A stretch of 64,000 nt of DNA from Minisyncoccota bacterium (lineage in GTDB: Bacteria; Patescibacteriota; Minisyncoccia; JAHIHE01; JAGLIN01). The stretch is from contig JAQVBZ010000004.1 of NCBI GenBank assembly GCA_028690055.1, positions 1,855-65,854 of the forward strand. The letters run 5' to 3'. Below, one piece after another: positions 4,488 to 46,977 of this stretch. A program made the translations under genes and the position numbers. Position 1 is the stretch's first letter, and each line of letters begins with the position of its first letter. Under the pieces are notes generated by a model. The model made no database searches, was not told where the DNA came from, and saw nothing but the letters and a program-made list of their open reading frames with translations.

Positions 4488-5298
4488 GTGCTAAGATCTC
4501 CTATTTTTTTATCGCGAAATAATTTACCTACAAAACAAAATCGCGAAATCTCGTGAGGGGTTGAAGACTGATAAGCCGTTTTAAATATTGAATAATTTAG
4601 TAATCTATAAGGCCCAAAGCGGACAAATGGAGTTTAGCGGAGATTTTCAAAATTAAACCATCTGGGCTACGCTAGACCAGATTGCCGATGTTTTTGGATG
4701 CGATAAATCTGTCATTTCATAACATTTTAAAAATGTTTTTAAAGAAGGCGAATTGCAGAGAGAATCAGTTGTTGCAAAAAACGCAACAACTGCCAGCGAC
4801 GGTAAAATTTATCAGGTTGAATATTATAATCTGGACACCATTATTCCGTCGGGTACAGGGTCAACTCTATGCAGTCTACAAAATTTCGCCAATAGGCCAC
4901 GAAGACATATGGGACAAATATTTTCGCGCCTTAAAACCCGAATATATTATGTCGTTTCCGAATTGTAGGGGCACAATATCTTGTGCCCTTTTTATCACTA
5001 AAACCGCGAAAGATACGATGCTGACAATAAGGTTATCTTTATAAACAACCTTCGCAAACTCTTACGTATTTCCCGGATACCTCATGCGAGTACGCCTTTT
5101 TCTGGATGAGAAATTACTGGGGGGCTTTAATAAAAATTTTGGTTTTCTCGCTTTACATTCCGCCGACAGGGTTTATACTATAAATGTAGGCTTTAAACGC
5201 GAAAATACCCGGGAACGGGGAATGCACCTAAGAAAACGATGATTTTACAGGGAGGCCGGGGAGAGGCGCTTTTTTAATGGGATTTATAAAAACTTTTT

Positions 5299-6753
5299 AT
5301 GTTTGAACAATCTTTTAAGAATATTGATGATATCTTACGCAAGGATGCTGGGGCGTCGAGCGAGTTGGACTATGTTGAGCAGACTTCCTGGATTCTTTTT
5401 TTGAAATATCTAGACGATCTGGAGAAGGAAAAAGAACTGGCGGCGAAACTTGCCGACCAAGAATATAAATATATTATCTCGCCTAAATACCGTTGGGAGG
5501 CGTGGGCTTGTCCCAAAGGCAAGGATGGAAAACTGGATCACAATACTGCACTTTCGGGCGATGACCTTAAGGACTTTGTGGATCGGGAGCTTTTTCCGTA
5601 TCTGAAGAAATTCTGTGAGGATGCAGTAAGCCCAGATACGATTGAATACAAGATCGGGGAAATTTTTAGTGAAATCAAAAATAAGATCCAGAGTGGATAT
5701 AATCTTCGCGAAGTTTTGAATATTATCGATGCAATGCGTTTTCGCTCTCAGCAGGAAAAGCACGAGCTTTCGCATCTCTATGAAGTCAAGATTAAGAATA
5801 TGGGCAATGCGGGACGAAACGGAGGCGAATACTATACTCCGCGTCCGCTTATCAAGACCATCGTCAAAGTGGTTGATCCCAAAATCGGGGAAACCGTCTA
5901 TGACGGCGCCGTGGGTTCAGCCGGGTTTTTGGTGGAAGCTTTTGAGCATATGAAGGAAAGTAAAAAACTTTCCACAAGCGATATGGACTTTTTGCAGATG
6001 AAAACCTTTTTTGGTAAAGAGAAAAAATCGCTGGCATACATTATCGGGATTATGAATATGATTTTGCACGGCATTGAAGCGCCTAGCATCCGCCATATGA
6101 ATACTCTTTCGGAAAATATTGCCGACTTTCAAGAAAAAGACCGCTTTGATATTGTGCTGGCGAATCCGCCATTTGGCAGCCAAGAGCGCGCGGAAGTCCA
6201 GCAAAATTTCCCCATCAAAACCGGAGAAACCGCTTTTCTTTTCCTTCAACATTTTATAAAAATACTTCGAGCCGGCGGCAGGGCGGGTGTGGTCATCAAA
6301 AACACTTTTCTTTCCAACACCGATAACGCTTCCGTTTCGCTTCGCAAGACGCTCCTCACTGAATGTAATCTCCATACCGTCCTCGACCTTCCCGGTGGCA
6401 CCTTCACCGGCGCGGGTGTGAAAACCGTGATTCTATTTTTTGAAAAAGGCAAACCCACGAAAAAAGTCTGGTTCTATCAACTCAACCTCGACCGCAATCT
6501 CGGCAAGACCAATCCGCTTAGTGAAAAGGATCTGGCTGATTTTCTGAAACTGCAAAAGACCAAAGCTGACAGTGAAAATTCTTGGACGATTGATGTCGCA
6601 GATATTGATGCGAAAACTTTTGACCTCTCGGTTAAGAATCCGAATAAAAATGGGGAAGTGGTTTTGAGAGAGCCGGGGGAGATTTTGGGGGAGATGGAAG
6701 CTTTAAATAAGGAAAGTAATGTGATTTTGTCTAAAATTAGGAAGATATGCTAG
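5299..6753 (+). CDS. hsdM: Type I restriction-modification system, DNA methyltransferase subunit M
   Basis: 484 aa; HsdM N-terminal domain; AdoMet motif I (DGAVGSAGFL) and catalytic motif IV (NPPFG) of N6-adenine methyltransferases. Confidence 0.92.
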   Translation: MFEQSFKNIDDILRKDAGASSELDYVEQTSWILFLKYLDDLEKEKELAAKLADQEYKYIISPKYRWEAWACPKGKDGKLDHNTALSGDDLKDFVDRELFPYLKKFCEDAVSPDTIEYKIGEIFSEIKNKIQSGYNLREVLNIIDAMRFRSQQEKHELSHLYEVKIKNMGNAGRNGGEYYTPRPLIKTIVKVVDPKIGETVYDGAVGSAGFLVEAFEHMKESKKLSTSDMDFLQMKTFFGKEKKSLAYIIGIMNMILHGIEAPSIRHMNTLSENIADFQEKDRFDIVLANPPFGSQERAEVQQNFPIKTGETAFLFLQHFIKILRAGGRAGVVIKNTFLSNTDNASVSLRKTLLTECNLHTVLDLPGGTFTGAGVKTVILFFEKGKPTKKVWFYQLNLDRNLGKTNPLSEKDLADFLKLQKTKADSENSWTIDVADIDAKTFDLSVKNPNKNGEVVLREPGEILGEMEALNKESNVILSKIRKIC

Positions 6754-6805
6754 TTTTGCTACAAGAGAACTATCGATTATTGGGCTTATACTAGGCATTC
6801 TCTTA

Positions 6806-6835
6806 TCATTTGACATTACTAGTATAGTATAATAT
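6806..6835. promoter_or_regulatory. Perfect 10-bp inverted repeat flanking TATAAT-like box upstream of the AAA ATPase gene (candidate operator/promoter)
   Basis: ttactagtat-agtataat-atactagtaa; a second TATAAT at 6857-6862. Confidence 0.35.
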
Positions 6836-6850
6836 ACTAGTAACATACAG

Positions 6851-8296
6851 TTGAAGTATAATAGAATATATATGAATCAGGAACTGGTACAATATTTGCA
6901 ACAACAAATCAGAACGAGTGATGAGAGGTTGAAGCGATTTACGCACGACATAAAAGGAAAGCCATATCCTAGCCGTTTTATGTTTGTAAAATTAAAGCAA
7001 TATGTCAACGATTTTGTTAAAAAGAAATCGACCAACAGGATGGTGATTATGCCGGGCTTTAGAGGCGTGGGAAAGACTACTCTAATGGCTCAAGTGTGCG
7101 CGGAATATAAGAATATGGGATATAATACCCTTTTTCTCTCCGTTGAAGACGCTAATAATCTTTTTGATGTCGGCATCGCAGAGCTAATGTCGGCTTATGA
7201 AAGCATTTTAGGAGAAAATCTAGAAACCGTAAAAAAACCAATCTTGATTTTCCTGGACGAGATTCAGAGCGACCCCAAATGGGCGGTCACACTGAAGTCA
7301 TTGTTTGAGAAAACTTCAAATATATTTTTTTGCTGTACCGGATCTTCAGCCGTTATCTTGCAGACTACGACCAACCTAGCCCGAAGAGCTGTCTTTGAGA
7401 GAATGCCGCCAATGTGTTTTACGGAATATCAGATGGTAAAAAATGAGATATATCCTATGAACGGACTGAAAGAAAAAATCAGGCAGGCGGTATATTTTTC
7501 AAAAGACGCGGATGAAGTTTATGTCAATCTAAAAAAACTTCAGCCTTCCGTCAATCAATATTGGTCAAAGGCGAACAGGTTTGATATTCGGGAATATCTC
7601 TCTTTTGGAACTTTGCCTTTTGCCTTAATGATGCCTAGCGAGTCTGCCGTGTATGACTCCATCTCTCTCTTGCTTGATAAAATCATCAGATATGACTTGC
7701 CGACTTTAGGCAGCTTTGATACGGATACTCTTGGAAATGTAAAAAGAATGCTTTTTTCAATCGCGGAAAACGATACAACCAGTTTAAACGTCCTAGAGGA
7801 AAGATTTAAAATCAATCGTCTAACAATTTCCAATATCTTTGATGCCTTGGTAAGAGCGGAACTGCTTATTGATGTGCCGGCTTATGGATCAAATATGGGG
7901 GTTGCCAAGAAACCGCATAAATATCTTTTTATGACACCGGCAATCAGAATGTCTTTTTTCTATTTTACCGGCAGAGAGGACACTTATTTAACCAGGCAGG
8001 GGAAACTACTGGAAGATTCGGTTGGTTCGCATCTTTATAGAGAATTTATTTTGAGAAATCAAGGCGCGATTCGTTACGACAGCGCAGAGGGTGGAGCTGA
8101 TTTTATTTTACAAATACAAAATAACAAACAAATTATTATTGAAGTGGGGATGGGTAGCAAAGATAAGAAACAGATTATAAACAGCAGTAAAAAAATAAGT
8201 TCGGATTATAATCTGATTTTTTCTAATAGCGAATTAAAAGTCGATCCGGATCTGAAAATCGTGTTTGTGCCGTTGGATTATTATTTTTTGATGTAG
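6851..8296 (+). CDS. AAA+ superfamily ATPase, COG1373-like (AAA_14 + DUF4143-like C-terminal domain)
   Basis: Walker A GFRGVGKTT, Walker B ILIFLDEIQ; C-terminal D…E…K (GGADFILQ…IIIEVGMGSK) reminiscent of a PD-(D/E)xK fold. TTG at 6851 or ATG at 6872. Confidence 0.8.
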   Translation: MKYNRIYMNQELVQYLQQQIRTSDERLKRFTHDIKGKPYPSRFMFVKLKQYVNDFVKKKSTNRMVIMPGFRGVGKTTLMAQVCAEYKNMGYNTLFLSVEDANNLFDVGIAELMSAYESILGENLETVKKPILIFLDEIQSDPKWAVTLKSLFEKTSNIFFCCTGSSAVILQTTTNLARRAVFERMPPMCFTEYQMVKNEIYPMNGLKEKIRQAVYFSKDADEVYVNLKKLQPSVNQYWSKANRFDIREYLSFGTLPFALMMPSESAVYDSISLLLDKIIRYDLPTLGSFDTDTLGNVKRMLFSIAENDTTSLNVLEERFKINRLTISNIFDALVRAELLIDVPAYGSNMGVAKKPHKYLFMTPAIRMSFFYFTGREDTYLTRQGKLLEDSVGSHLYREFILRNQGAIRYDSAEGGADFILQIQNNKQIIIEVGMGSKDKKQIINSSKKISSDYNLIFSNSELKVDPDLKIVFVPLDYYFLM

Positions 8297-8444
8297 GTTA
8301 TCTGAAAAAGGGAAGTGATTTATTAAGGACACATAGAGAGTTCACCGTAAAGCCCTTAAACTATAAAATCATTAATTTGCTTATATTGCACCAGACGCTC
8401 GATGAGCCATATACAAAGATTTAATTGGTTCCATAAATTTTATT

Positions 8445-9056
8445 ATGAGAGAGAAAATTTTGCAAAAATATAGTCGTCTCATACAAGATATAGACGACTC
8501 TTCTGAAAGACCAGGCACGTCAACAATAGTGCGTGTTGTGACTGAGGCTAAAAATTTAATAAGAAAATCCTGTGGTGAGAGTAGTGATCACTATCTAGCA
8601 ATTAAAAGATTAAGTGAAAATTTCCACAGAAACGATTCAAGCCAATATAAAGGGATAATCGAGGCGGCCTATAATGATTATAAGGATGGGTTCACAAACA
8701 TCGACTCGTTTATTAGGGCGGAAATTTTTGAGGACTTTCTTTCAATGTCAGAATATCTTCTTGAGCAAGGATATAACGCTCCGGCCGCTTCTTTGGCGGG
8801 TGGAGTATTAGAAGATTCTTTGCGAAAACTATGTGATAAACATGGCATTTTGTATCCTGAAAAAACAAAGATAAATAGCCTTAATATAGACTTGGCGAAA
8901 GCGGGTGTTTACACTGCTTTAGTGTCAAAAGAAATCATTGCGAAGGCTGATATCAGAAATAGTGCCGACCATGGTAAATTTGAAGAATTAAAAAAAGAAG
9001 ACGTTGAAGAAATGGTTAGATGGGTTCGCAGATTTATTATTGAATATTTAGGATAA
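8445..9056 (+). CDS. HEPN-superfamily protein, DUF4145-like (203 aa)
   Basis: C-terminal …LAKAGVYTALVSKEIIAKADIRNSADHGKFEE… contains the Rx4H motif (R-NSAD-H) in a DUF4145-like context. Stop overlaps the start of the next ORF (TAATGG). Confidence 0.6.
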   Translation: MREKILQKYSRLIQDIDDSSERPGTSTIVRVVTEAKNLIRKSCGESSDHYLAIKRLSENFHRNDSSQYKGIIEAAYNDYKDGFTNIDSFIRAEIFEDFLSMSEYLLEQGYNAPAASLAGGVLEDSLRKLCDKHGILYPEKTKINSLNIDLAKAGVYTALVSKEIIAKADIRNSADHGKFEELKKEDVEEMVRWVRRFIIEYLG

Positions 9057-9643
9057 TGGATGAAAAAGATCAAATAATTTTAGAAGATTCAATTCATGCT
9101 ATTTTGTCCAATATTCCAGGACTGAATATCGCTTGGGGGCTTAGCACGGCTTTATACGGATCGGCTTTGAAACTGAGGCAAAAGAAAGTCCTCGAATGGG
9201 TAGAAATGGTAAGAGATAATCCGAATATTTTTGTTACAGACTTATTGCAAAATGAGTTTTTTCAAGATGGCTTTGCCTATTCCTTGGAAAAGTATGTGGT
9301 CGAAAGAAATGAAGAAAAGAGAAAATATTTTAGGAATATTTTTCTAGGATTTTCATCTAGTAATGATATGCAAAACTTCCCGCTTGAAAAGTTTGTTCAT
9401 ACTCTTTCACAGTTGGGAAAAGTGGACGTTACTGTTTTGGGGGATGTAAATATTATGCAACAGGATAGCGAATATCAGATTTATGGGAATGAAAATCATA
9501 AATTAATTTATATATATAATTTAATAAATCTAGGTATTTTGAGCACAAGTCCAACAACTAGATACGGTCCTATTCACGCACCCTTTGTTCGGGTTTCGGC
9601 GTTTGGAGGAGAATTTATAAAATATATAAAAGATGAAAAATAG
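9056..9643 (+). CDS. hypothetical protein (195 aa), translationally coupled to the HEPN gene and hsdS
   Basis: 1-nt overlap with upstream stop and 11-nt overlap with hsdS start; no recognisable motif. Confidence 0.55.
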   Translation: MDEKDQIILEDSIHAILSNIPGLNIAWGLSTALYGSALKLRQKKVLEWVEMVRDNPNIFVTDLLQNEFFQDGFAYSLEKYVVERNEEKRKYFRNIFLGFSSSNDMQNFPLEKFVHTLSQLGKVDVTVLGDVNIMQQDSEYQIYGNENHKLIYIYNLINLGILSTSPTTRYGPIHAPFVRVSAFGGEFIKYIKDEK

Positions 9644-10811
9644 TTGGCAAACAAAAAAACTTGAAGATGTCTGTAATATTGTTGGCGGAGGAACCCCTTC
9701 TAAAATCAACGAGAGCTTTTATACTGGAAAAATCCTCTGGGCGACTGTAAGAGATATGAAGTCTGACATAATTGAAGACACAGAATACAAAATAACTGAA
9801 GAGGCGATAAAAAATAGTTCAACTAATATTATTCCGAAAAATAATGTTATTATTGCCACACGAGTTGGATTGGGAAAGGTTTGTTTTTCTAAATATGATA
9901 TGGCGGTTAATCAAGACTTAAAAGGTATTATCCCTAGAGATACAAATAGATTGTCTGTGTGTTATTTGTATTGGTGGCTAAAAAGCACCTCAAATATTAT
10001 TGAAGAAAACGGAACTGGTGCAACAGTGCAAGGTGTAAAACTATCGTTTATAAAAAATCTGAGAATCCCCCTTCCTTCTCTCCTTGAGCAAAAACGGATT
10101 GTGAAGATTTTGGATGAGGTTTTTGAGGAGGTGGGGAAGGCGAAAGAAAATGCGGAGAAGAATTTGCGGAATTCTCGCGAGCTTTTTGAGTCGTATTTGC
10201 AGAGTGTTTTTGAGAATAAGGGAGAGGGGTGGGGGGAGAGGAGACTAGGAGACGTTTGCGGAACTGGTGCGGGTGGTACTCCTCTAAAATCTCATAAAGA
10301 ATATTATGAAAATGGCGAAGTCCCCTGGCTTAGAAGTGGTGAGGTAAATAAAAAAGAAGTGATGCGATCAAAAGTTTTTATCTCAGAAGCAGGATTGAAT
10401 AATTCTTCCGCAAGAATGTTTCCTATAAATACAGTATTGATTGCGATGTACGGAGCAACGGCTGGGCAGGTGGGAATTTTGAAATTTGCATCATCCACGA
10501 ATCAAGCAGTTTGCGGAATTTTACCCAACAAAAAATTTTCAGCAGATTTTCTTTATTATGTCTTTCTGTCTAAGAAAAAAGAATTAGTTTCACAAGCAGT
10601 TGGTGGGGCACAGCCGAACATTTCACAGATTAAGATAAAAGATACTTTTATTCCAGTCTTAGAATTATCTGAGCAAAAAGCTATCGTCAAAAAACTTGAT
10701 GCGCTTTCTGAGGAGACGAAGAAGTTGGAGGAGATTTATAAAAAGGAAATTGCCGATTTGGAGGAGTTGAAAAAGTCCGTTTTGCAGAAGGCATTTCGAG
10801 GGGAATTATAA
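9633..10811 (+). CDS. hsdS: Type I restriction-modification system, specificity subunit S
   Basis: 392 aa; two target-recognition domains separated and followed by the conserved coiled-coil repeats (LPSLLEQKRIVKILDEVFEEV… / LSEQKAIVKKLDALSEE…). Confidence 0.9.
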   Translation: MKNSWQTKKLEDVCNIVGGGTPSKINESFYTGKILWATVRDMKSDIIEDTEYKITEEAIKNSSTNIIPKNNVIIATRVGLGKVCFSKYDMAVNQDLKGIIPRDTNRLSVCYLYWWLKSTSNIIEENGTGATVQGVKLSFIKNLRIPLPSLLEQKRIVKILDEVFEEVGKAKENAEKNLRNSRELFESYLQSVFENKGEGWGERRLGDVCGTGAGGTPLKSHKEYYENGEVPWLRSGEVNKKEVMRSKVFISEAGLNNSSARMFPINTVLIAMYGATAGQVGILKFASSTNQAVCGILPNKKFSADFLYYVFLSKKKELVSQAVGGAQPNISQIKIKDTFIPVLELSEQKAIVKKLDALSEETKKLEEIYKKEIADLEELKKSVLQKAFRGEL

Positions 10812-10818
10812 AGTTTAG

Positions 10819-10932
10819 TTGTCATTCCGAGCTTGTCGAGGAATCGCTACACTACGATAAGGCTGCATAATACGGGTTGGATGGTGGTGAAGGGATCCTT
10901 CGACTCCGCTACGCTCCGCTCAGGATGACAAA
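10819..10932. mobile_element. MITE-like element, family A (copy 1 of a tandem pair)
   Basis: ttgtcattccgagc … ctcaggatgacaaa; ~90% identical to the copy at 10967-11080. Confidence 0.65.
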
Positions 10933-10966
10933 TCAAGGGGCTTTTAGAGAGAAAGGTAATTTTTGT

Positions 10967-11080
10967 TTGTCATTCCGAGCTTGTCGAGGAATCTCTTCAT
11001 TACGATAGGGCTGCATAATACGGATTGGGTGGTAGTGAAGGGATCCTTCGACTCCGTTACGCTCTGCTCAGGATGACAAA
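10967..11080. mobile_element. MITE-like element, family A (copy 2 of a tandem pair)
   Basis: Same termini and core as 10819-10932. Confidence 0.65.
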
Positions 11081-11100
11081 AAAAGGAGATGGTGCGGCAT

Positions 11101-11236
11101 GGAGTAGTAGACTTTAGTCTGCGCGGCTGTCCTACGGGGGAGATAATAACGCATACGGCGCATTTATCGGCTTGGGATAGCAGCGCGGGTTAAAACCCGC
11201 TACTCCAAAACGCGCGCGGGTTGAAACCTGTTACTC
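11101..11236. mobile_element. MITE-like element, family B (GGAGTAGYAG…CTGCTACTCC) with partial tandem repeat of its right end
   Basis: ggagtagtagactttagtctgcgc … ggatagcagcgcgggttaaaacccgctactcc, then a second …gggttgaaacctgttactcc. Confidence 0.6.
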
Positions 11237-11326
11237 CAAAACAAAATGTAGCGCGGGATGAATCACATTGCTCCTAGGTATGTGGATGTTATTTGCTTTT
11301 ATCTATGTTTTTGGTAAGATGAAGTT

Positions 11327-12346
11327 ATGAAGTTTACAAGAACAAAAAAACTCTTATTTACGAACAATAAAGGGGGTGTTGGGAAGACAACGCTTGCTTT
11401 TAATTGTGCAATGTCATTTGCAAAGCAAGGCTATAAAACGGTCTTGGTTGACCTGGATCCACAATGCAATCTTTCCCGCCTAGCGCTTGGAGAAGAAGAA
11501 TTTTCAAAAACTTTATTTTCAACTACTCACAAGGATATATCCGATGTGCTTCGAGGTGTGGTTGAGGGTGGGGGTGATGTTGATTTCGCGGTTCCTTTTA
11601 TACCAATTCTAAGAAGTAATTCGAATTTATTTCTTATGAAAGGGAGCGTCGAGCTTTCTCTTTACGAAAATTTGCTTGTGACCGCTTATGGACAAGCTGC
11701 TTCCGGGCAACAAATAGGATACTTTCAGACGAGTGCGATTGACAGATTTCTACGCGAAAGAGGACTGAGTGATGAAGTAGATATTTTTATAATTGATACG
11801 TCGCCTAGTTTGTCCCTGCTTAATCAGATAATATTTCTTGGTTCTGATTATTTTGTGGTGCCAATGATGCCTGATGCTTTTAGTGTGCAGGGAATAGAAA
11901 ACTTGGGGACAATATTTGAGAAATGGAAGACTAATTGGAAAAATACAGGCAAAGCCCTTTCGGGAGATACGGAAAATAAATTTATTTTGTCTGGAGAGGG
12001 ACTGTTTATTGGGTATATAGTGAATTCTTATAACGTATATGGCGGACAGCCCATCAAGGATCATCGGCATTGGATTGATGAAATTCCTGAAAAAGTAAAG
12101 AAATTTCTTTCTGAGAAACATTGTCGAAACGGTTTGGTTGAGAAAAGCTGGAAAGAGCCTATTTCTATTATCAAAGATTATGGAAGAATCCCTGCTATGT
12201 GCCAGGAGCTGGGTGTTGCTATATTTGATTTAGATCCGTCGCTTGTTGAAGATAATCAAATAGGTACAAAGGAAAATATTGAAAAATCGAAGGAGGAATT
12301 CGATAGCTTGTCGAATAGAATACTTAATGTATTGTCTGCTTATTAA
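11327..12346 (+). CDS. ParA/MinD-family P-loop ATPase (orphan, 339 aa)
   Basis: Deviant Walker A NNKGGVGKTT, Walker A' and B (VLVDLDPQ, IFIIDTSP); no parB nearby; extended C-terminus. Confidence 0.8.
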   Translation: MKFTRTKKLLFTNNKGGVGKTTLAFNCAMSFAKQGYKTVLVDLDPQCNLSRLALGEEEFSKTLFSTTHKDISDVLRGVVEGGGDVDFAVPFIPILRSNSNLFLMKGSVELSLYENLLVTAYGQAASGQQIGYFQTSAIDRFLRERGLSDEVDIFIIDTSPSLSLLNQIIFLGSDYFVVPMMPDAFSVQGIENLGTIFEKWKTNWKNTGKALSGDTENKFILSGEGLFIGYIVNSYNVYGGQPIKDHRHWIDEIPEKVKKFLSEKHCRNGLVEKSWKEPISIIKDYGRIPAMCQELGVAIFDLDPSLVEDNQIGTKENIEKSKEEFDSLSNRILNVLSAY

Positions 12347-12368
12347 AGATTTTATCGCAGGTTTTGTT

Positions 12369-12396
12369 AAAACTCGTCTTTCGGGCGAGTTTTTAA
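12369..12396 (+). terminator. Rho-independent terminator after the ParA-like gene
   Basis: AAAACTCG-tctttcggg-CGAGTTTT + TTTTAAT. Confidence 0.65.
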
Positions 12397-12404
12397 TACC
12401 TATA

Positions 12405-12534
12405 CCGAATTAATTTAATCTGTGGCATAATGATTTCACATTTAGTCCCCCTCACCCCGACCCTCTCCCGATGGGAGAGGGAGAAATCACAAATGCTTTA
12501 CGATTGGGTTGTAGGACAGATTCAGTTAATTCGG
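12405..12534. mobile_element. MITE-like element, family C (TIR CCGAATTAATTTAATCTG; internal CCCTCTCCCGATGGGAGAGGG hairpin)
   Basis: ccgaattaatttaatctgtg … cagattcagttaattcgg; ~85% identical to 17651-17784 and to 38880-39012 (inverted). Confidence 0.65.
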
Positions 12535-12640
12535 TATTATTCTAATGTCTGGAAATAACGCAATCCTTATTCTAGAAAAAGCCCTCAGACTGGAATAACG
12601 AGGACTATGCTTTTTTAGATTTAATTAAAATCATAAAGTA

Positions 12641-14962
12641 ATGAAAACAGAAGCTGACACAAGAGCGGAATATATTGACCCCAAACTTCGCGAGAGCGGA
12701 TGGGGAGAGGTCGAGGGATCGAAAATTCTTCGGGAGTTTCGTTTGACGGAGGGGAAAATTTTGTTGGGGGGAGCAAGGGGAAAAGCAGAGATCGCCGATT
12801 ATGTTTTGGTTTATAGAAATCAGAAAGTGGCGGTGATTGAGGCGAAACGGGAAGAACTGGGCGCAACCGAAGGAGTAGCGCAGGCCAAGGCTTATGCGCA
12901 GAAACTCCAAATCGAATATACATACGCGACCAACGGCAAGGACATTTACGAGATGTCTATGAAGAGCGGGATGGAAGGGTATATTGAGAAATTTCCAAGC
13001 CCGGAAGAGCTTTGGAATAATATTCATAGCGATCATAACCAGTGGCAGGAGAAATTTACTTCTGTGCCATTTGAAATCGTGAACGGAAAGAGTGTAAGAT
13101 ATTATCAGGAGATTGCAGCCAGTCGCGCTTTGGAAGCGATTGCCTTTGAGAAGCAAAGAGTTCTTTTGACTTTGGCCACCGGAACCGGAAAAACTTTTAT
13201 TGCTTTTCAGATCGCTTGGAAGCTATTTCAAACGCGCTGGAATTTGAGACGAGATGGAAAGCGTCAGCCGCGCATCTTGTTTCTCGCCGACCGCAATATT
13301 TTGGCCGGTCAGGCCTTCAACGATTTCTCAGCTTTTCCTGAGGATGCGCTTATTCGCATCAGTCCGCAGGATATCCGAAAGAAGGGAAAAGTGCCGACAA
13401 ACGGAAGTGTGTTTTTTACGATTTTTCAGACATTTATGAGCGGGCCTAATAACACTCCTAGTTACGGAGAATATCCGCCGGATTTTTTTGATTTGATCAT
13501 CATCGACGAATGTCATCGAGGTGGCGCCAACGATGAGAGCAACTGGCGCGGGATTCTGGAATATTTTGCTCCGGCAGTCCAATTGGGGCTTACTGCTACG
13601 CCTAAGAGAAAAGACAATGTCGATACCTATCGCTATTTTGGCGAGCCGGTATATACTTATTCTTTGAAAGAAGGAATTAATGATGGTTTTTTGACACCGT
13701 TCAAAGTTAAAAGAGTAAAGACTACTTTGGATGATTATGTATATACTTCGGACGATGAGCTAATCGAGGGGGAAGTTGAGGAAGGGAAGATTTATGAAGA
13801 GGCGGACTTCAATCGTATTATTGAAATTAAAGAGCGTGAAGCAGAAAGAGTGCGGATTGTTTTAGACGAGATTAAAGAGAATGAGAAAACGATTATTTTT
13901 TGTGCCAATCAGGCGCACGCGCTGGCGGTGCGGGATTTGGTTAATCAGTTTAAGAAAAGTTCCGATCCGGATTATTGCGTGAGAGTTACGGCGAACGATG
14001 GCGCGCGCGGCGATCAATATTTGAAAACATTTCAGGATAATGAAAAAACCATCCCGACTATTTTAACCACCTCGCAAAAACTTTCCACCGGAGTCGATGC
14101 GCGCAATGTTCGCAATATTGTTTTGATGCGGCCCATTAATTCTATGATTGAGTTTAAACAAATTATCGGAAGAGGGACCAGACTTTTTGACGGGAAAGAA
14201 TATTTCACAATTCTGGATTTTGTAGATGCTTACCGGCTATTTGCGGACAAAGAATGGGATGGCGAGCCTATTGAGGAGATTGTTGAAGATGAGTCTATCG
14301 GGATTAAGAAGAAAATAGAAGAGTTTTTTCCTGAGCCTCTCTTGAAAGAGCCGGAAGAGCCGGAAGAGACCAAGAAAAAAATCAAGATTAAATTGCGGGA
14401 CGGAAAAGAGCGGGAAATTCAGCATATGATTTCCACGTCATTTTGGAGCGCGGATGGAAAGCCGATTTCAGCGGAAGAACTACTCCGAAGTATGTTTGGC
14501 AAACTTTCTGAATTTTTTACAAGCGAAGAGCAACTGCGCAGTATTTGGTCAAACCCAAAAACACGAAAGAATTTTCTCGCAAACATTTCCGATGCCGGAT
14601 ACGGAAAGACCGAGCTTGAGGCGCTGCAAAAGATGATAGATGCCGAAAATAGTGATATTTTCGACGTGCTTGCTTACATCGCTTTCGCAATACCGCCGAT
14701 TACTCGAGAGCAAAGAGCGGAGGATGCGAAAGAAAATATTTTTGATGATGCCGAGGAAGAGCAAAGAGATTTTCTGGATTTTGTGCTGCGAAAATATATC
14801 GAAAAGGGTGCGGAGGAACTGGGGGAAGAGAAACTTCCTAAATTATTGGGACTTAAGTATAATTCCATTTCCGATGCGGAACGGACTCTTGGAGGAGTGC
14901 AGGAGATTCGTGCAAGGTTCTTGGATTTGCAGAAAGATTTGTATGAGGTTATATCAAGATAA
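12641..14962 (+). CDS. hsdR: Type I restriction enzyme, endonuclease/helicase subunit R (EcoEI/type IB-like)
   Basis: 773 aa; HsdR N-terminal PD-(D/E)xK nuclease (DYVLVY…VIEAKRE), SF2 helicase motifs (TGTGKT, DECH), C-terminal EcoEI_R_C-like domain. Confidence 0.9.
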   Translation: MKTEADTRAEYIDPKLRESGWGEVEGSKILREFRLTEGKILLGGARGKAEIADYVLVYRNQKVAVIEAKREELGATEGVAQAKAYAQKLQIEYTYATNGKDIYEMSMKSGMEGYIEKFPSPEELWNNIHSDHNQWQEKFTSVPFEIVNGKSVRYYQEIAASRALEAIAFEKQRVLLTLATGTGKTFIAFQIAWKLFQTRWNLRRDGKRQPRILFLADRNILAGQAFNDFSAFPEDALIRISPQDIRKKGKVPTNGSVFFTIFQTFMSGPNNTPSYGEYPPDFFDLIIIDECHRGGANDESNWRGILEYFAPAVQLGLTATPKRKDNVDTYRYFGEPVYTYSLKEGINDGFLTPFKVKRVKTTLDDYVYTSDDELIEGEVEEGKIYEEADFNRIIEIKEREAERVRIVLDEIKENEKTIIFCANQAHALAVRDLVNQFKKSSDPDYCVRVTANDGARGDQYLKTFQDNEKTIPTILTTSQKLSTGVDARNVRNIVLMRPINSMIEFKQIIGRGTRLFDGKEYFTILDFVDAYRLFADKEWDGEPIEEIVEDESIGIKKKIEEFFPEPLLKEPEEPEETKKKIKIKLRDGKEREIQHMISTSFWSADGKPISAEELLRSMFGKLSEFFTSEEQLRSIWSNPKTRKNFLANISDAGYGKTELEALQKMIDAENSDIFDVLAYIAFAIPPITREQRAEDAKENIFDDAEEEQRDFLDFVLRKYIEKGAEELGEEKLPKLLGLKYNSISDAERTLGGVQEIRARFLDLQKDLYEVISR

Positions 14963-15008
14963 AAGATGAAACAATATCTCAATCGAACTATCCATATTGT
15001 CATAATCT

Positions 15009-15082
15009 GGAGTAGCGGGCTATAACTCGCGCGGTTGTCTCAAGGGCATCGGATAGCAGCGCAGACTGAAGTCTGCTACTCC
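15009..15082. mobile_element. MITE-like element, family B
   Basis: ggagtagcgggctataactcgcgcggttgtc … ggatagcagcgcagactgaagtctgctactcc. Confidence 0.6.
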
Positions 15083-15321
15083 GAAATGCGATGCGGAATA
15101 AAGATGTGCGCTCTATGTGTCAAAAAGGAAAAAGATTTTGCAGAATTGAAAAATAAATCATAATAAAACAAAATTAAAACTATGTCAGACACAATCAAAA
15201 AACATTCGCCTTTAAAAAACACTCCACTACGACAGGCGGGAGAATCTCTCAATGATAAACTTCAGGAAATCCTTTACGTAAAGATAATGTCTGTTATCAT
15301 CGCTATTTTTTTGTATTCTTT

Positions 15322-15975
15322 ATGGCTGTTTATGATCTATTCAGACTTTATTTTAATATAGAACCTAGACCTTCGGTCTGGTTTTTGTCTGGCATCTTAT
15401 TAATTTTGTTTTATCGTAATAAATTACAAAATTATTGGCAGGAAGCGAAAAACACCGGGTTGGGAATGCGAGGAGAAAGAATTGTAAGCGAGATGCTATA
15501 TGGACTGAAAAAAGACGGATATGAGATATTTAATGACCTGATCAATGCGAAAGGTAATATTGATCATATCATTGTAGGCCCCGCCGGTGTGTTTACTGTT
15601 GAGACCAAGACCGCTAGTAAAGCTGGAGGTGATCAGAGGATTTCATATGATGGAGAAAATATTAGGATTGATGGGTGGATTCCGAGTAGAAATATTATAA
15701 AACAGGCCTTGGCAGAAAAATATTGGCTAGAAGACTTTATTGCGCAAAGAACTGAAAAGACAGTAACTATCAAAGTCACGCCTGTTGTTATTTACCCAGG
15801 GTGGTTTATTGACCCTTCCTGCCATAAAAGCACGGAGGTTATGATATTAAACGATGACGAGAAAGGATTGCCTGCTCAACTCCAAAAGATGGAAAGGACT
15901 CTTAGTGAAGAGCAGATAGATATTTTGTCTAAACATATCGGAGACCGTATACGAGAGTGTTATAAGGGATCTTAA
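15322..15975 (+). CDS. NERD (nuclease-related domain) protein, membrane-anchored
   Basis: N-terminal TM helix; GERIVSEMLYGL…GYEIFNDL…IDHIIVGPAGVFTVETKT matches the NERD core. Confidence 0.7.
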   Translation: MAVYDLFRLYFNIEPRPSVWFLSGILLILFYRNKLQNYWQEAKNTGLGMRGERIVSEMLYGLKKDGYEIFNDLINAKGNIDHIIVGPAGVFTVETKTASKAGGDQRISYDGENIRIDGWIPSRNIIKQALAEKYWLEDFIAQRTEKTVTIKVTPVVIYPGWFIDPSCHKSTEVMILNDDEKGLPAQLQKMERTLSEEQIDILSKHIGDRIRECYKGS

Positions 15976-16575: not shown

Positions 16576-17358
16576 TTGCGCCCTTACAGGAATAACATAA
16601 ATCTTAATCGTAAAAATATGCCTCTAAAATATGATTTGGATAAAATCAGGTTTGCCACCGATGCGGCGACTTTTGAGAAAGCGGTGGATTTGTGTGAGAA
16701 GGGTAAGGTGACGCGGTTCGAGAGAGGGCCGTATGGGTGTTCTGCGATTGTGTTGGGAACTCATCCGTATAAAGTTTATGTGGAAAACCAGCATTATGAT
16801 CAAGGGGGCTGCGAGTGTTATGTCGCACAGAAGAATATGCTCTGCAAACATATGGTGGCGGTAGCTATTTATGCCGTCAAAGGCGGTAAAAAATTGAGTC
16901 CGGAGGAGAAGATGGCGGCCGGTGGTCCGAAGTGTAGCGGCAAGTTGGGCGAATTGGACAATGAAGAGTTATCTCTCGTCAAACAGACCGTCACTTCGTC
17001 GATGAAATATATAAAGGCGTATGAAGGTCCGTCCAAGGTATGGTTCGCTTATCAGGATTCATTGCAAGAAGGATGCAACCGTTTAGCCAAAGTGGTGTCC
17101 GATTTGCCGGTAAGCAGACAGACTGCAAGTATCGTTGTCGATATGCTTTTACGTTTGGATAAGAAACTTTGCCAAGGCAGGGTGGATGATTCCGAGGGAA
17201 TAGTCGGTGCATTTATTGAAGATGCGGTCGGCGTTCTTGAGGAATATGTCAAACTTGATCCGTCTTGTGCGCAAGCTTTTGCCGCTTTGAGAGACTGGGA
17301 GACTTGTTTCGATTGGGAAAAGCGGCTTGTTGGACTTATTGAAAGTAAAGACGCATAG
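16576..17358 (+). CDS. SWIM zinc-finger domain protein
   Basis: CxCxnCxH motif GCECYVAQKNMLCKHMVAVAIYAV preceded by a β-strand-rich region; more likely start is the internal Met at 16618. Confidence 0.65.
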   Translation: MRPYRNNINLNRKNMPLKYDLDKIRFATDAATFEKAVDLCEKGKVTRFERGPYGCSAIVLGTHPYKVYVENQHYDQGGCECYVAQKNMLCKHMVAVAIYAVKGGKKLSPEEKMAAGGPKCSGKLGELDNEELSLVKQTVTSSMKYIKAYEGPSKVWFAYQDSLQEGCNRLAKVVSDLPVSRQTASIVVDMLLRLDKKLCQGRVDDSEGIVGAFIEDAVGVLEEYVKLDPSCAQAFAALRDWETCFDWEKRLVGLIESKDA

Positions 17359-17650
17359 AATTATCGTCTCGTAATTGCGGAGTCTAATGTTTTTTTCGGG
17401 GGGGGGCGAAGGGAGGAATACAAATGCAACGGAATGCAAAATGCATATAAAATGCCGAAGGGATTATCTATTGTTCCCCCTCACCTCGACCCTCTCCCGA
17501 TGGGCGAGGGAGAAGATACGAGTATTGGAGTTTGTATGCACTGTTGTTATAAAAAAGGGCACAAGATATTGTGCCCCTACGGAATACAAAAGACGCAGGC
17601 GGTGTGTCTTTTTTTGGATGTTGGTTTTTTTGGATGTCATTAGGAAATTA

Positions 17651-17784
17651 TACCAAATCAACTTAATCTGTGACATAATGATTTCACTTTTGTTCCCCCT
17701 CACCCCAACCCTCTCCCGGTAGGAGAGGGAGAAATTCCAAATGCTGTATGACTGGATTATAGGACAGATTTAGTTAATTTGGTA
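17651..17784. mobile_element. MITE-like element, family C
   Basis: taccaaatcaacttaatctg … cagatttagttaatttggta; its right TIR contains the last 4 codons (Pro-Ile-Pro-Asn) and the stop of the pilin-like gene. Confidence 0.65.
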
Positions 17785-18190
17785 TTGGTTGGTCTGCCTG
17801 GGGAGTTTTGCCGGTAAATTTGCAGCCTGTTTCTGTGCAGATGGCGGAGGTGATATCTCCGGCGCGTGTTGGGGGTGGTGTGAATCGGATGGAGAAAGTG
17901 CCGTCCGGATCGCAGTCGCGAAGGACCGTGATGCTGTCGATTGCAGTGGCGGCGGGGTAGGTGTCGGATCCGCCGATGGCGCAGATTTCCTCGTCCGCGA
18001 CATCGTTCAGGCTTCCTCCGTCATAGCAGCACATCAGGGCGGCGGGAACGACGCTTGCGGTTGTTAGCTGAAAGGAGGCGTCATACGCTTTTCCTTGGGC
18101 GAAGAAGATGGAGGAGGCTATCACTATAACCATCTGAGAGGCGATTAAGACTTCGATAGGTATAAATCCTTTATCTTTTTGGATGTGCAT
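17774..18190 (-). CDS. Type IV pilin / pseudopilin-like protein (prepilin N-terminal methylation motif)
   Basis: Start at internal Met of the listed ORF: MHIQKDKGFIPIEVLIASQMVIVIASSIFF fits the class III signal G|F-x-x-x-E plus a hydrophobic helix; Cys-rich C-terminal half. Confidence 0.6.
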   Translation of the reverse strand: MHIQKDKGFIPIEVLIASQMVIVIASSIFFAQGKAYDASFQLTTASVVPAALMCCYDGGSLNDVADEEICAIGGSDTYPAATAIDSITVLRDCDPDGTFSIRFTPPPTRAGDITSAICTETGCKFTGKTPQADQPIPN

Positions 18191-18789
18191 AATGGTCTTG
18201 ATTAGCGAGATTATAGTATCAAAGTAGCATAGAATATTAAAAATAGGAATATCGGGGTGTTTATAGGGAGTAGGGCTATTTTTACTTCTTTTTTTCAAAA
18301 GGCTAAGCAAAATGCGGATTCAGATGCGATGCACAATGATTGGGAATTATTTGCCCCCCCTCACCCCGACCCTCTCCCGGTAGGAGAGGGAGAAAGACAG
18401 ATGCGACAGACTGAATAATATACAAAATGCCAAGGAATTGTTTTTTTCTCCATGTGAAAGGATTATTTATTATTACCTCTTATCCCGATCCTTTCCCTGT
18501 AGGAGGGGGAGAAAAGCAAATATAAAATACCACCTCCTGATTCGACTCTTTCCAGCTGTCGCGATTACGCTTTGGGGTGGCGATGCTCGATGGGCTAGGG
18601 AAAAAGACTAAATACCTGTCGTACTGACATGATAGTTTTTTGGGTTGATTTTATTCCAGTATTATCCTTGCAAACGAGGATCCCGAAATGAGTTCAGGAT
18701 GACAATTCGGAAAACGAGGGCACAAAATATTGTGCCCCTACGGGGTAAATGCAAAATGCTAGATGAGGCATTTGCTCTATTCGAATTGG

Positions 18790-22770: not shown

Positions 22771-22907
22771 GTACTATTTGAAAAATGCGGAAGGAAAAAT
22801 GGCTGGGGATTGTTTATCCCCCCCCTCACCCCGACCCTCTCCCGATGGGCGAGGGAGAAATGCAATGCGACGCTCCTTTATTAAATATAATTCGAATAGG
22901 TAGATTT

Positions 22908-23447
22908 ATGATTCAAATTACTTACTTTGTTCATGGAACAACTATAGATAACCAAAAAGAAATATCGTCGGGCTGGAACGATGTCGATCTTTCTGAATTA
23001 GGAGTAGAACAATCTATCAAGCTTAAAGAACAGATAACAGATAAAAATTTTGATGTTGTTTTTTGTTCTGACCTGAAAAGGGCTTATGAATCTGCGCGAC
23101 TTACTTTTGAAGATAGTTTAGATATTGTTCAGGATAAAAGATTACGAGAGTGCAACTACGGTAAATATAATGCCAAGCCATCGGCTATCGTTGAGCCGAT
23201 GCAAGAAAAAATGATTTATGATAGATTTCCGGATGGTGAAAGTTATGAAGATGTAAAAATAAGGATGTCCGACTTTCTTGATTTCTTGAGGGAAAAATTT
23301 GATGGCAAAAATATTGCTATCGTTGCTCATAAAGCCCCACAGCTTGCCCTTGATGTTTTATTGAAAAATAAGAACTGGGAACAGGCGTTTGCAGATGATT
23401 GGAGAAAAGCAAAGTCTTGGAAGCCGGGATGGGAATATGAGATTTAG
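22908..23447 (+). CDS. Histidine phosphatase family protein (phosphoglycerate-mutase-like)
   Basis: ITYFVHGTT…GW.D..LSELG catalytic His motif; listed ORF start 22785 runs through a repeat, so ATG 22908 is preferred. Confidence 0.75.
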   Translation: MIQITYFVHGTTIDNQKEISSGWNDVDLSELGVEQSIKLKEQITDKNFDVVFCSDLKRAYESARLTFEDSLDIVQDKRLRECNYGKYNAKPSAIVEPMQEKMIYDRFPDGESYEDVKIRMSDFLDFLREKFDGKNIAIVAHKAPQLALDVLLKNKNWEQAFADDWRKAKSWKPGWEYEI

Positions 23448-27850: not shown

Positions 27851-27988
27851 GAGGGTAGCTGGATGTGATCGATAATTTTTGTAAAGATTCCGGGTATTCT
27901 GATTGTCGTCGCGGTGCTTCCTCCGCGCAATTATACAAGCTTAATAATTCTCTGACAGAATGTTAATTGAAACAAATACACGCTAAGT

Positions 27989-28155
27989 TTGTCATCCCGA
28001 AAGGCGTACTCGCCTGAGGGATCTGGGAAATATATTAGCTATTGTGAATATTATCTATAAAGATAACTTTATTATCGAATATGATGTCTTTCCCGGATTC
28101 CGGGGGGGGCGCAGAGGGCACAAGATATTGTGCCCCTACAATTCGGAATGACGAA
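27989..28155. mobile_element. Composite MITE-like element (family A termini + GGGCACAA palindrome); part of a ~280-bp block duplicated at 46.9-47.2 kb
   Basis: ttgtcatcccgaaagg…gggcacaagatattgtgcccctacaattcggaatgacgaaa. Confidence 0.65.
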
Positions 28156-28283
28156 ATATATTTGGTTTTTAAAGCACAAAAGTATCTATTCTGTTAAGAA
28201 TGTCAGTAAATTATTAAACTTGTACGGCAATAAAAATCATCGCGGGCTTTCGAAGACGGGGTTATAAAATATAAAAAATAAAC

Positions 28284-36410: not shown

Positions 36411-36544
36411 TGTCATTCCAAAATGAGCGAAGCGATTGAGGAATCTGGGAAAGATGCGATGCAACTGGAATATTTATTTTAAAGATAATAATATTGCAGT
36501 ATCGTGCATTTCCCAGATTTCTCACATTCGTTCGAAATGACAAC
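36411..36544. mobile_element. MITE-like element, family A
   Basis: tgtcattccaaaatg…gaatctgggaaa … tttcccagattt…cgaaatgacaac. Confidence 0.55.
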
Positions 36545-37256
36545 TAAAAATAATTCTATGACTACAGAACAGTTTGAAATTTTGATTACTTTTTTCGGTG
36601 CTTTTTTCGGTGCTTTTTTTGCATTTATTTTCATGCTAAAAATTGAGCAGGGGCATCGAAATGAAGAGATCAAAAATGCACTTTTCGAAATTAGCGTCAG
36701 GAGTAGTGTTGATAATGAAATAGCTATTGATAAAAATATCTCGATCATAGGTTCTTTGCAAAAAGGAATTTCTGAAAACTCTTCTTTTTATTATCCCTTT
36801 GGTGGATTTTGTTTATTTCAAAAAAACAGTTCTGCGGTTTTAAATAAGCTGGGAGGTATTGACCTAATGTTTAAAATTATTGATTTTGATTATAAAACTC
36901 AAAAGATTAATCAGGAGATGAATGATATAGGCAAGCCTTTTTTGGGTAAAAATTTGATTAAAGAAAAAGATTCAAATAGTTTTTTTAACGGTGAAACTTA
37001 TTTTGATTCAGATAGCTACGCAAATGATTTATTAGAAAAAAAACATGCGTTGGAAATGCTAGAGGAAGATAATATTAAGATTCTAGTAAGGACTAATACT
37101 TTGTTAAAAAAGAAAAATAAAGGGGTGTTTTTCAGATTGTTTCAAAATGATAAGGTTACTGATAACGATATAGAAAATGAACAGATAGAAATAGAGCAAT
37201 TTAAAGAAGTTTATAAAAAGAGAAGAGAACCAAAAATAAATACTACAAATCTATGA
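36504..37256 (+). CDS. hypothetical membrane protein, AT-rich and low complexity
   Basis: N-terminal TM (ILITFFGAFFGAFFAFIFML); K/N/D-rich remainder. Confidence 0.4.
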   Translation: MHFPDFSHSFEMTTKNNSMTTEQFEILITFFGAFFGAFFAFIFMLKIEQGHRNEEIKNALFEISVRSSVDNEIAIDKNISIIGSLQKGISENSSFYYPFGGFCLFQKNSSAVLNKLGGIDLMFKIIDFDYKTQKINQEMNDIGKPFLGKNLIKEKDSNSFFNGETYFDSDSYANDLLEKKHALEMLEEDNIKILVRTNTLLKKKNKGVFFRLFQNDKVTDNDIENEQIEIEQFKEVYKKRREPKINTTNL

Positions 37257-37636: not shown

Positions 37637-37647
37637 AATATATCGTG

Positions 37648-37752
37648 GAGTAGCTGGTTTTAACCCGCGCCGTTGTCCTATGCTGTTTGAACCTCCGCAG
37701 TCGCACGTTCTGTTTGCATAGGATAGCAGCGCAGGTTAAAACCTGCTACTCC
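37648..37752. mobile_element. MITE-like element, family B
   Basis: ggagtagctggttttaacccgcgccgttgtcc … ggatagcagcgcaggttaaaacctgctactcc. Confidence 0.6.
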
Positions 37753-45687: not shown

Positions 45688-45861
45688 TGGAGTAGCGGGA
45701 TTTATCCCGCGCGGTTGTCCCAAGCCACTAAACCCTTCGCAATCGCACTTCCTATTCACATAAGATAGCAGCGCAGGTTAAAACCTGCTACTCCATCGTG
45801 TTTTTAGCAATTGTACGTTCTATTCGCGTAGGACAACTGCGCAGACTAAAGTCTGCTACTC
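45688..45861. mobile_element. MITE-like element, family B with duplicated right end
   Basis: ggagtagcgggatttatcccgcgcggttgtccc … gatagcagcgcaggttaaaacctgctactcc … gcgcagactaaagtctgctactcc. Confidence 0.6.
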
Positions 45862-46222
45862 CAAATTCTTATCGCTTGACAGCCCTTGGTATTTTTTATT
45901 TTTATGCTATCATAAAACAAAAAGCGAGGATTTACTATGGATTGTGCATCGGAGATACTCTCATTTAAAATTCTATTAGGTTACATAGGGTGGAAAGGAT
46001 GTTTGCTAATATTATGGGTTTGTTTTATTTTCGAGGTACTGGTGGTATATTTGCCGCGGTATATAGATAGAAAAAAGAAACCCAATGATCTTAAGTAAAT
46101 TTTTATTGTTTACGAATCATAGGATTACATCACAAAATAAGATTAAGGTTAAAAGATTGAACTGGCTTGCTTATTACTTATCAGCTTTTTTAATCTTTAT
46201 TTTTTTGTGCTAAGATAAGACT

Positions 46223-46876: not shown

Positions 46877-46977
46877 TAGGGCTGCGTTTAATGATTAAAT
46901 ACAATTTGTTTGCCATTCCTGTACAAGTTTAATAATTCACTAATTGAATTGTAATTGAAACAAATACACTCGTAATT

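Follow-up and report, generated by a model that had tools for sequence, protein, structure and literature searches.

A functional-looking type IB restriction–modification operon of a Patescibacteria genome that appears to carry exchangeable nested defence-type genes

In a 64-kb stretch of DNA (the window) from a metagenome-assembled genome (MAG) of an ultra-small bacterium, Candidatus Pacebacteria (Patescibacteria, candidate phyla radiation (CPR); Paceibacteria-type), we found that the hsdM, hsdS and hsdR genes of a type I restriction–modification (R-M) system are separated by genes of other kinds. This locus is likely to be a functional-looking type IB hsdM–hsdS–hsdR operon that carries exchangeable nested defence-type genes together with one resident ParA-like gene. 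The observations that bear on this reading are the identities of the genes, their intact motifs, the variable contents of the slots between the hsd genes in related operons, a mosaic pattern of identity within one population and the contexts in which the same gene families occur elsewhere. A first-pass annotation of the DNA had described a type I R-M operon interspersed with defence-type genes and miniature inverted-repeat transposable element (MITE)-like repeats; its gene order and coordinates were reproduced exactly by a mechanically produced list of open reading frames (ORFs), and its general description is backed by Pfam and PADLOC scans, by GC content at third codon positions (GC3) and by repeat analysis. 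Domain labels are taken from Pfam, NCBIfam and PADLOC scans, with PHROGs scanned as well for the 195-amino-acid (195-aa) protein described below; L-numbers denote homologous loci from genomes or metagenomes, and P-numbers denote single proteins of relatives. The hsd genes, the genes between them and two upstream promoter-like sites are as follows.

5152..5179, + strand: sigma-70-like promoter match upstream of hsdM (TTTACA-16-TATACT, 10/12; consensus match only)
5299..6753, + strand: hsdM, type I N6-adenine methyltransferase subunit (N6_Mtase 5e-66; HsdM_N; PADLOC MTase_I 2e-160)
6810..6838, + strand: strong promoter-like match directly upstream of the ATPase gene (TTGACA-17-TATACT, 11/12; consensus match only)
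6851..8296, + strand: AAA_14 + DUF4143 ATPase with a PD-(D/E)xK-like C terminus, slot 1 cargo (AAA_14 4e-24; DUF4143 3.5e-7; PADLOC PDC-S01)
8445..9056, + strand: HEPN-domain protein, predicted RNase, lineage-stable nested gene (Pfam HEPN 21.9 bits against a cut-off of 22.0; fold from structure)
9056..9643, + strand: 195-aa protein of an unannotated family, slot 2 cargo (helical domain and C-terminal winged-helix-like domain)
9633..10811, + strand: hsdS, specificity subunit with two target recognition domains (Methylase_S 1e-56, in two stretches)
11327..12346, + strand: ParA/MinD-family ATPase of 339 aa, in slot 3 (AAA_31 5e-28; CbiA)
12641..14962, + strand: hsdR, type IB (EcoAI/EcoEI-family) translocase-nuclease subunit (NF046051; ResIII; Helicase_C; EcoEI_R_C)

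The subunits have the features of a family IB system. HsdR matched NF046051, the model of the EcoAI/FtnUII family, with 841.9 bits against a curated cut-off of 550 and over positions 3–769 of 773, and it also carries an EcoEI_R_C domain (7.7e-27); HsdM has an N6_Mtase domain with an NPPF motif at residue 289, and HsdS has two recognition domains. The catalytic motifs are intact in HsdM (NPPF) and HsdR (GTGKT, DECH and D53...E67-x-K69) as well as in the nested ATPase (Walker A and B), the HEPN protein (R171-x4-H176) and the ParA-like protein (KGGVGKT). Judged by these motifs, the system looks functional and is predicted to carry out ATP-dependent restriction and bipartite N6-methyladenine (m6A) methylation. 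The hsdM gene is 93–96% identical in the related loci L004 and L035.

Comparison with orthologous type IB operons (hsdM 75–96% identical, hsdR 71–99%) revealed that the contents of the slots between the hsd genes vary. The first slot, from hsdM to the HEPN gene, holds the AAA_14/DUF4143 ATPase in the window and in L035, an AAA_15/AAA_21 ATPase in L004 and a Bro-N gene in L038, and is empty in L037. The second slot, from the HEPN gene to hsdS, contains the 195-aa gene in the window and in L004, the 195-aa gene plus a 279-aa ORF in L035, L126 and L128, and nothing in L038. In the third, from hsdS to hsdR, the ParA-like gene is found in the window and its population, and a Fic/DOC gene in L004 and L038. 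The 279-aa ORF (L035, 7189–8028) has no counterpart in the window and no Pfam match; it overlaps the 195-aa gene on one side and hsdS on the other. Five operons (the window, L035, L004, L038 and L037) have the HEPN gene between hsdM and hsdS, and it is the sole cargo common to all five.

These comparisons bear on several proposals of the first-pass annotation. The secondary acquisition of the cargo that it suggested is borne out, as exchange is directly visible in the operons of relatives, and its impression that the cargo is richer in AT than hsdM and hsdR holds up in measurement: relative to the 37 window ORFs outside the island (GC3 0.514 ± 0.073), GC3 z-scores are −0.35 for hsdM and −0.85 for hsdR, as against −1.45 to −3.1 for the cargo (AAA_14 ATPase −1.45, HEPN gene −2.9, 195-aa gene −3.1, with the ParA-like gene at −2.6, hsdS itself at −2.35 and a downstream NERD-domain gene at −2.2). 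The idea that the ATPase, HEPN and 195-aa genes form a conserved triad failed, since the three occur together only in the same population (L035/L126). That the combination of genes at the locus is not a recognised named system was correct but proved unremarkable, because nesting in type I R-M loci has already been catalogued and the ATPase belongs to the known candidate family PDC-S01.

Exchange can also be followed within a single population. L035 and the window come from one population, with the ParA protein 100%, hsdR 99% and hsdM 96% identical. To the right of position 11085, nucleotide identity is 98–99% in all population variants, whereas the left half is a mosaic: within the population, the HEPN protein is 93%, the 195-aa protein 70% and HsdS 46% identical, and identity to L035 drops from 93–99% in the ATPase gene to 64–76% in the 195-aa gene. 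In hsdS, nucleotide conservation with relatives is confined to a central block (10050–10252) and a C-terminal block (10664–10811), which indicates that the recognition domains have been exchanged. A further variant, L129, shows the order ATPase 3′ end, remnant of the hsdM 3′ end (93% identical to window positions 6529–6695), AAA_15/AAA_21 ATPase, hsdS, ParA-like gene and hsdR; here the AAA_15/AAA_21 ATPase stands where the window has the HEPN and 195-aa genes, and HEPN is absent. This part of L129 (1–2502), with the hsdM remnant between the two ATPase genes, resembles the scar of a cassette exchange between hsd operons.

These patterns are probably accounted for by a model in which the type IB R-M system serves as a scaffold for nested accessory genes. 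From the patterns we infer the mechanism of recombination, the defence activity of the cargo and its independence of, or coupling to, the R-M complex. Slot contents would be swapped between strains and species by homologous recombination, with the 3′ end of hsdM and the central and C-terminal conserved blocks of hsdS as putative anchors. Because these hsdS blocks flank the differing recognition domains, cargo would travel together with swaps of specificity. Most likely, each nested gene is a second line of defence in its own right, and its position lets it be inherited and transferred together with the operon. Among them, the ATPase would act as an ATPase-nuclease of the PDC-S01 type, the HEPN protein as an RNase with an Rx4H site and the 195-aa protein as a winged-helix-like partner of nucleases; the NERD gene downstream would encode a nuclease, inactivated here by a frameshift.

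The slot 1 ATPase matched PDLC04787 (PDC-S01) at 6.7e-30 over residues 45–453, which places it in that family, and it contains a Walker A motif (GFRGVGKT) and a Walker B motif (LIFLDE). Its assignment to defence comes from PADLOC. PDC-S01 is reported to rank fourth in frequency among prokaryotic defence candidates; it joins an ATPase to a PD-(D/E)xK domain, and its validation is pending (PMC12988326). An AAA+ ATPase had been annotated at 6851–8296, and the class was right, but the start probably was not: the ORF opens at a TTG at 6851, but in L126, which is 97% identical, the gene call (474 aa) begins at the equivalent of the ATG at 6872, probably the true start. The promoter-like site at 6810–6838 is compatible with either.

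The HEPN protein has 203 residues, with the HEPN domain at residues 96–198 preceded by a helical N-terminal extension. Its AlphaFold2 (AF2) model is confident (predicted local distance difference test (pLDDT) score 90) and confirms the HEPN fold. The Rx4H site, R171-x4-H176, is invariant across 30 homologues, and this motif (Rx4-6H in the superfamily) together with the four-helix fold assigns the protein, a predicted RNase, to the HEPN superfamily. Pfam, NCBIfam and PADLOC scans found no P-loop or ABC ATPase domain in it, and no minimal nucleotidyltransferase (MNT) is encoded beside it, as neither of its neighbours, the AAA_14 ATPase and the 195-aa protein, has such a domain. Sequence profile searches of the PDB with the HEPN and 195-aa families gave nothing significant.

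A profile scan of metagenomes with the HEPN family yielded 80 loci. When their neighbours were clustered all against all, only hsdM-like and hsdS-like genes recurred, and this association extends to loci in which the HEPN protein is 43–59% identical (L039, L045 and L075). The 195-aa gene was missing from 79 of the 80, and L035 alone had both it and the ATPase gene. Association of HEPN with hsdM and hsdS is thus recurrent but a minority, and is compatible with a backup role like that of PrrC. No other cargo is kept across the lineage, so if any nested product is functionally coupled to the R-M complex, the HEPN protein is the foremost candidate, acting as a backup RNase in the manner of PrrC.

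The classical example of a guard is PrrC, which may serve as a backup when restriction is inhibited (PMC12707154). By analogy with PrrC and EcoprrI, the complex of HsdM, HsdS and HsdR might hold the HEPN RNase, perhaps together with the 195-aa protein, in an inactive state, from which a phage anti-restriction protein would free it, and cleavage of tRNA or mRNA would then abort the infection. We regard this as unlikely, even though several features are in line with it. Besides the PrrC precedent (PMC12707154) and the intact Rx4H site, the five related operons all retain the HEPN gene between hsdM and hsdS, as do more distant ones, L039 among them, and overlapping stop and start codons link the HEPN gene to the 195-aa gene (by 1 nt, ATGA) and the 195-aa gene to hsdS (by 11 nt). 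However, approximately 70 of the 80 HEPN-family loci have no hsd gene nearby, though many of these lie on short contigs; the HEPN protein lacks the ABC ATPase regulatory domain of PrrC and RloC; and L129, which has the same hsdR/ParA backbone, has no HEPN gene.

For the 195-aa protein, no family was found in Pfam, NCBIfam, PADLOC or PHROGs, and PADLOC and PHROGs scans of the whole family at relaxed thresholds returned nothing consistent. Its sequence matches exactly that of a hypothetical protein encoded on a 68.7-kb contig of a Candidatus Pacebacteria MAG, which places the window in a Patescibacteria genome. Its AF2 model (pLDDT 78) has an N-terminal segment that is modelled with low confidence although its sequence is very conserved, as well as a helical bundle and a C terminus that is winged-helix-like, as in AbiEi-type and MarR-type DNA binders. 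We found 277 close homologues (50–70% identical, 192–221 aa) and 353 representative clusters among 1.84 billion proteins, none of them annotated; where the source named an organism, it was mostly a member of Patescibacteria. Longer relatives (230–300 aa) have the N-terminal 138 residues in common with the family and show no Pfam match. Two other assignments were considered and set aside. Abi_alpha (PF14337) appeared only below threshold, in 5 of 28 close members (best E value 0.011) and in 0 of 41 distant ones, and is unproven; and a membrane helix in the N-terminal segment is not supported, as a Kyte-Doolittle mean of approximately 1.0 over 19 residues is too low and the AF2 confidence of the segment is low.

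The genomic contexts of this family suggest a link to nucleases. Scanning one genome per species with the family profile gave 31 loci, 30 of which lack the HEPN gene; the exception is L004, from a related Paceibacterota MAG, and the ATPase was the partner in none. All-against-all clustering of the neighbours found no conserved partner gene. Instead, in approximately 20 of the approximately 28 loci with a readable upstream region, the 195-aa gene comes immediately after a same-strand gene, often with overlapping stop and start codons, and the identity of this upstream neighbour varies from locus to locus. These upstream genes encode HEPN, Mrr_cat (twice, in L008 and L015), SMODS + AGS_C and KAP NTPase proteins, a helicase with an MTES_1575 endonuclease domain, DUF3800, a helix-turn-helix (HTH) + Peptidase_M78 protein, HsdM, a type IIG methyltransferase-endonuclease and Trypsin_2. 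Members adjoin R-M methyltransferase or specificity genes in L004, L021, L026, L031, L035, L131 and L133, and P0312 (514 aa), a relative of the long form, carries a fused Mrr_cat nuclease domain at its C-terminal end. The varying upstream nuclease and NTPase genes and this fusion point to a module that works with nucleases. A more speculative reading is that the 195-aa proteins form a previously undescribed, Patescibacteria-centred accessory module that serves nucleases and NTPases of many unrelated kinds (HEPN, Mrr_cat, type IIG enzymes, helicase–restriction endonuclease proteins, SMODS and KAP), possibly as a DNA reader or sensor, a regulator or a promiscuous antitoxin, which in type I operons would be carried with the hsdS specificity cassette.

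It is also conceivable, though rather doubtful, that the HEPN and 195-aa proteins are a toxin–antitoxin pair, or that the 195-aa family provides many unrelated toxic effectors with a promiscuous antitoxin, a regulator or a DNA-reader module, comparable to the Panacea (PanA) antitoxin domain or to a split Mrr enzyme. The ATGA overlap between the two genes, the position of the 195-aa gene directly after a varying co-directional gene in most readable loci, the Mrr_cat fusion in P0312 and the winged-helix-like C terminus would all fit such a role. By contrast, HEPN homologues in L037, L038 and approximately 75 other loci have no 195-aa partner; as this is so in most loci, HEPN does not need the 195-aa protein. 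Some 195-aa members also have no co-directional upstream partner (L006, L014 and L132), and the protein has no significant similarity to any known antitoxin in searches of the Pfam, PDB and PADLOC type.

One further operon with a member of the 195-aa family, L131 (2702–10588), comes from another metagenome; it is an EcoEI-type hsd operon with six or seven nested genes, which include Trypsin_2, AbiEii, a member of the 195-aa family and three unknown ORFs. Judging from this example, heavy nesting may be frequent in the EcoEI-type R-M family of Patescibacteria.

The ParA-like gene differs from the cargo in its distribution. Its product has the deviant Walker A motif KGGVGKT at residue 15 (pattern KGGxGK[ST]) and more than 1,286 homologues; the 120 matches listed are 77–85% identical and nearly all exactly 339 aa long, and those named among them come from Wolfebacteria, Moranbacteria, Kaiserbacteria and other Patescibacteria, spanning several classes. 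In other genomes it stands amid SpoU methylase, tyrosyl-tRNA synthetase, histidine kinase and sugar-nucleotide genes (L115–L120) or RuBisCO, Dus, Obg and BipA genes (L122), and only in L123 and L124 does it adjoin another island, with hsdM, DUF3800 and insertion sequence (IS) genes. Neither the window nor any examined locus has beside it the gene for ParB or a centromere-binding partner that a ParABS partition system would have. The nearest solved relative is the uncharacterised structure 3pg5. The first-pass annotation had counted this orphan ParA among the cargo, a view that is contradicted by its conservation in Patescibacteria amid housekeeping genes. It appears to be a conserved resident gene of Patescibacteria, caught between hsdS and hsdR, rather than defence cargo, though this is not fully secure.

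Transcription units at the locus are proposed from the sequence. The strongest promoter-like sites on the + strand are those directly upstream of hsdM (5152–5179) and of the ATPase gene (6810–6838). A hairpin followed by a T-run at approximately 12371–12395, read from the sequence, did not pass the rule of the terminator scanner; it suggests that the ParA-like gene ends its own transcript. The hsdR gene is probably transcribed separately from the ParA-like gene.

Several points weigh against our view of the locus as a functional-looking operon with nested defence genes and a resident ParA-like gene. The promoter and terminator calls are consensus matches only, and PDC-S01 is a candidate family whose validation is pending. 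Most members of the HEPN and 195-aa families sit outside R-M loci, so their presence here could be plain clustering in a defence island, unrelated to R-M. The resident status of the ParA-like gene is made doubtful by its foreign-type GC3 (z = −2.6), which is like that of the cargo, and by its island neighbourhood in L123.

Patescibacteria have tiny genomes, are thought to depend on R-M systems and, to our knowledge, mostly lack CRISPR. Type I R-M systems on genomic islands have been described in them (PMC12455944). Genes embedded in type I R-M, BREX, DISARM and Hma loci were catalogued by Payne et al., whose 17,432 non-redundant embedded genes are the basis of the PDC candidates (bioRxiv 10.1101/2024.01.29.577857). 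Like the loci in that catalogue, the one described here has accessory defence-type genes between its subunit genes; its ATPase is the catalogue's candidate PDC-S01, and HEPN, NERD and ABC-ATPase cargo types are also included there (bioRxiv 10.1101/2024.01.29.577857). It differs in its uncultured Patescibacteria host, in the simultaneous filling of several slots, in a 195-aa protein for which PADLOC has no model and in the exchange of cargo and hsdS recognition domains that is seen directly at strain level.

Other known systems resemble the locus in part. As in the prr locus, where PrrC accompanies the type IC system EcoprrI, a gene for a HEPN-superfamily RNase lies inside a type I hsd operon. 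The HEPN gene thus shares the nesting of PrrC and RloC but not their N-terminal ABC ATPase; PrrC has that domain and sits between hsdS/hsdM and hsdR, whereas the HEPN protein here is a stand-alone protein of 203 aa encoded between hsdM and hsdS of a type IB system. TgvAB, in the type I R-M operon of Vibrio cholerae VPI-2, has been shown experimentally to be an independent nested system: two genes inserted in a five-gene hsd operon act as an independent, complementary restriction system (PMC11411939). Unlike the window locus, in which Pfam found neither DUF262 nor DUF1524, TgvAB is a GmrSD-like type IV enzyme. HEPN–MNT toxin–antitoxin systems of type II/VII (for example, SO_3166/SO_3165) differ as well, since here no MNT gene is adjacent and the downstream 195-aa protein is helical with a winged-helix-like part. 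Mrr-type type IV enzymes combine an N-terminal winged-helix DNA reader with a C-terminal Mrr_cat domain, and the 195-aa family recalls them in its winged-helix-like domain, in its place directly after Mrr_cat genes (L008 and L015) and in the Mrr_cat fusion of P0312. However, the 195-aa protein has no sequence similarity to Mrr_N, its partner in the window is HEPN, and the two-gene order is the reverse of that in the fusion.

With the principle of embedding already published, the locus is of value because it is well resolved and supplies candidates. Its contribution is the exchange of cargo resolved to the level of strains, a HEPN gene that is stable in the lineage and an unannotated 195-aa family, and it so yields a candidate R-M-linked HEPN RNase and a family with a striking pattern of nuclease partners. 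Its variants also form a natural series in which any dependence of nested genes on the R-M system around them can be tested.

MITE-like elements and two further genes lie between and beyond the genes discussed so far.

10814..10936, no strand: MITE-like family A, copy 1 (19-nt terminal inverted repeats TTGTCATTCCGAGC / GCTCAGGATGACAA; direct repeat family D7)
10962..11084, no strand: MITE-like family A, copy 2, in tandem with copy 1 (repeat and inverted-repeat analysis)
11100..11207, no strand: MITE-like family B (33-nt inverted arms; repeat families D2, D3 and D9)
12402..12537, no strand: MITE-like family C (22-nt terminal inverted repeats, 91% complementary; families D1 and D6)
15008..15082, no strand: MITE-like family B, shorter copy (repeat and inverted-repeat analysis)
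15182..15975, + strand: NERD-domain gene (NERD 1.9e-14; 264 aa in relatives, with a hydrophobic N terminus; frameshifted in the window)
16576..17358, + strand: 260-aa ORF with weak PDC-S62 and SWIM-like matches (PDC-S62 3.8e-15)

All three MITE-like families that had been described were found. Their elements are short and non-coding, have terminal inverted repeats of 19, 33 and 22 nt and occur in two to seven copies per family across the 64-kb window. The family A region measures 273 bp in the window and approximately 153 bp in L126, corresponding to two copies and about one. Family B has further copies at 15008, 18776, 37646 and 45688, and its element at 11100–11207 is the left edge of the block that is 98–99% identical in all population variants; the family C core occurs seven times.

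The insertions raise the possibility that the R-M operon was split by them and by MITEs and no longer works, the nested genes being unrelated passengers. The contiguous hsd arrangement is indeed lost, five MITE-like copies occupy the intergenic spaces and the NERD gene is frameshifted. Such decay is nonetheless highly improbable. All three hsd genes are full-length with their catalytic motifs intact, and they are 88–99% conserved in relatives while the recognition domains differ by exchange, a pattern typical of selection for a system that works. In addition, no coding sequence at the locus is interrupted by a MITE-like element, and the hsdR genes of type I systems commonly have their own transcription.

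In the NERD gene, the T-run at 15306–15312 has seven T residues compared with eight in L126, the one 1-nt gap in 1,039 nt, and tblastn accordingly splits the gene into two frames. The gene is intact (264 aa, with a start equivalent to 15182) in four population variants that are 99–100% identical, and the 1-nt deletion is seen against relatives of 99.9% identity. A NERD protein had been placed at 15322–15975; the domain was right, but the start was not, as 15322 is merely the next ATG after the frameshift and the true start is 15182. The shorter T-run may be an assembly error, mark a pseudogene or reflect phase variation. Beyond it, the 260-aa ORF has a homologue directly after hsdR in L038 (weak SWIM zinc-finger match, 9e-4) and another beside the 195-aa gene in L009; its GC3 is normal, and it is possibly the right-hand end of the same island.

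Scans for tRNA genes and Rfam families found none across the whole 64-kb window; there is accordingly no site of integration linked to a tRNA gene, and the intergenic repeats contain no known RNA. The window as a whole contains at least five short repeat families with inverted termini and up to seven copies each, including copies at 17470–18514, 27934–28227, 37646–37752, 45688–45862 and 46922–47212. Given that the Patescibacteria genome is reduced, this density of MITE-like elements is high. The most extreme compositional outlier of the window is an ORF of 250 aa at 36504–37256 (GC 0.286, GC3 z = −3.7), and the ORF at 22785–23447 also has low GC3 (z = −2.4).

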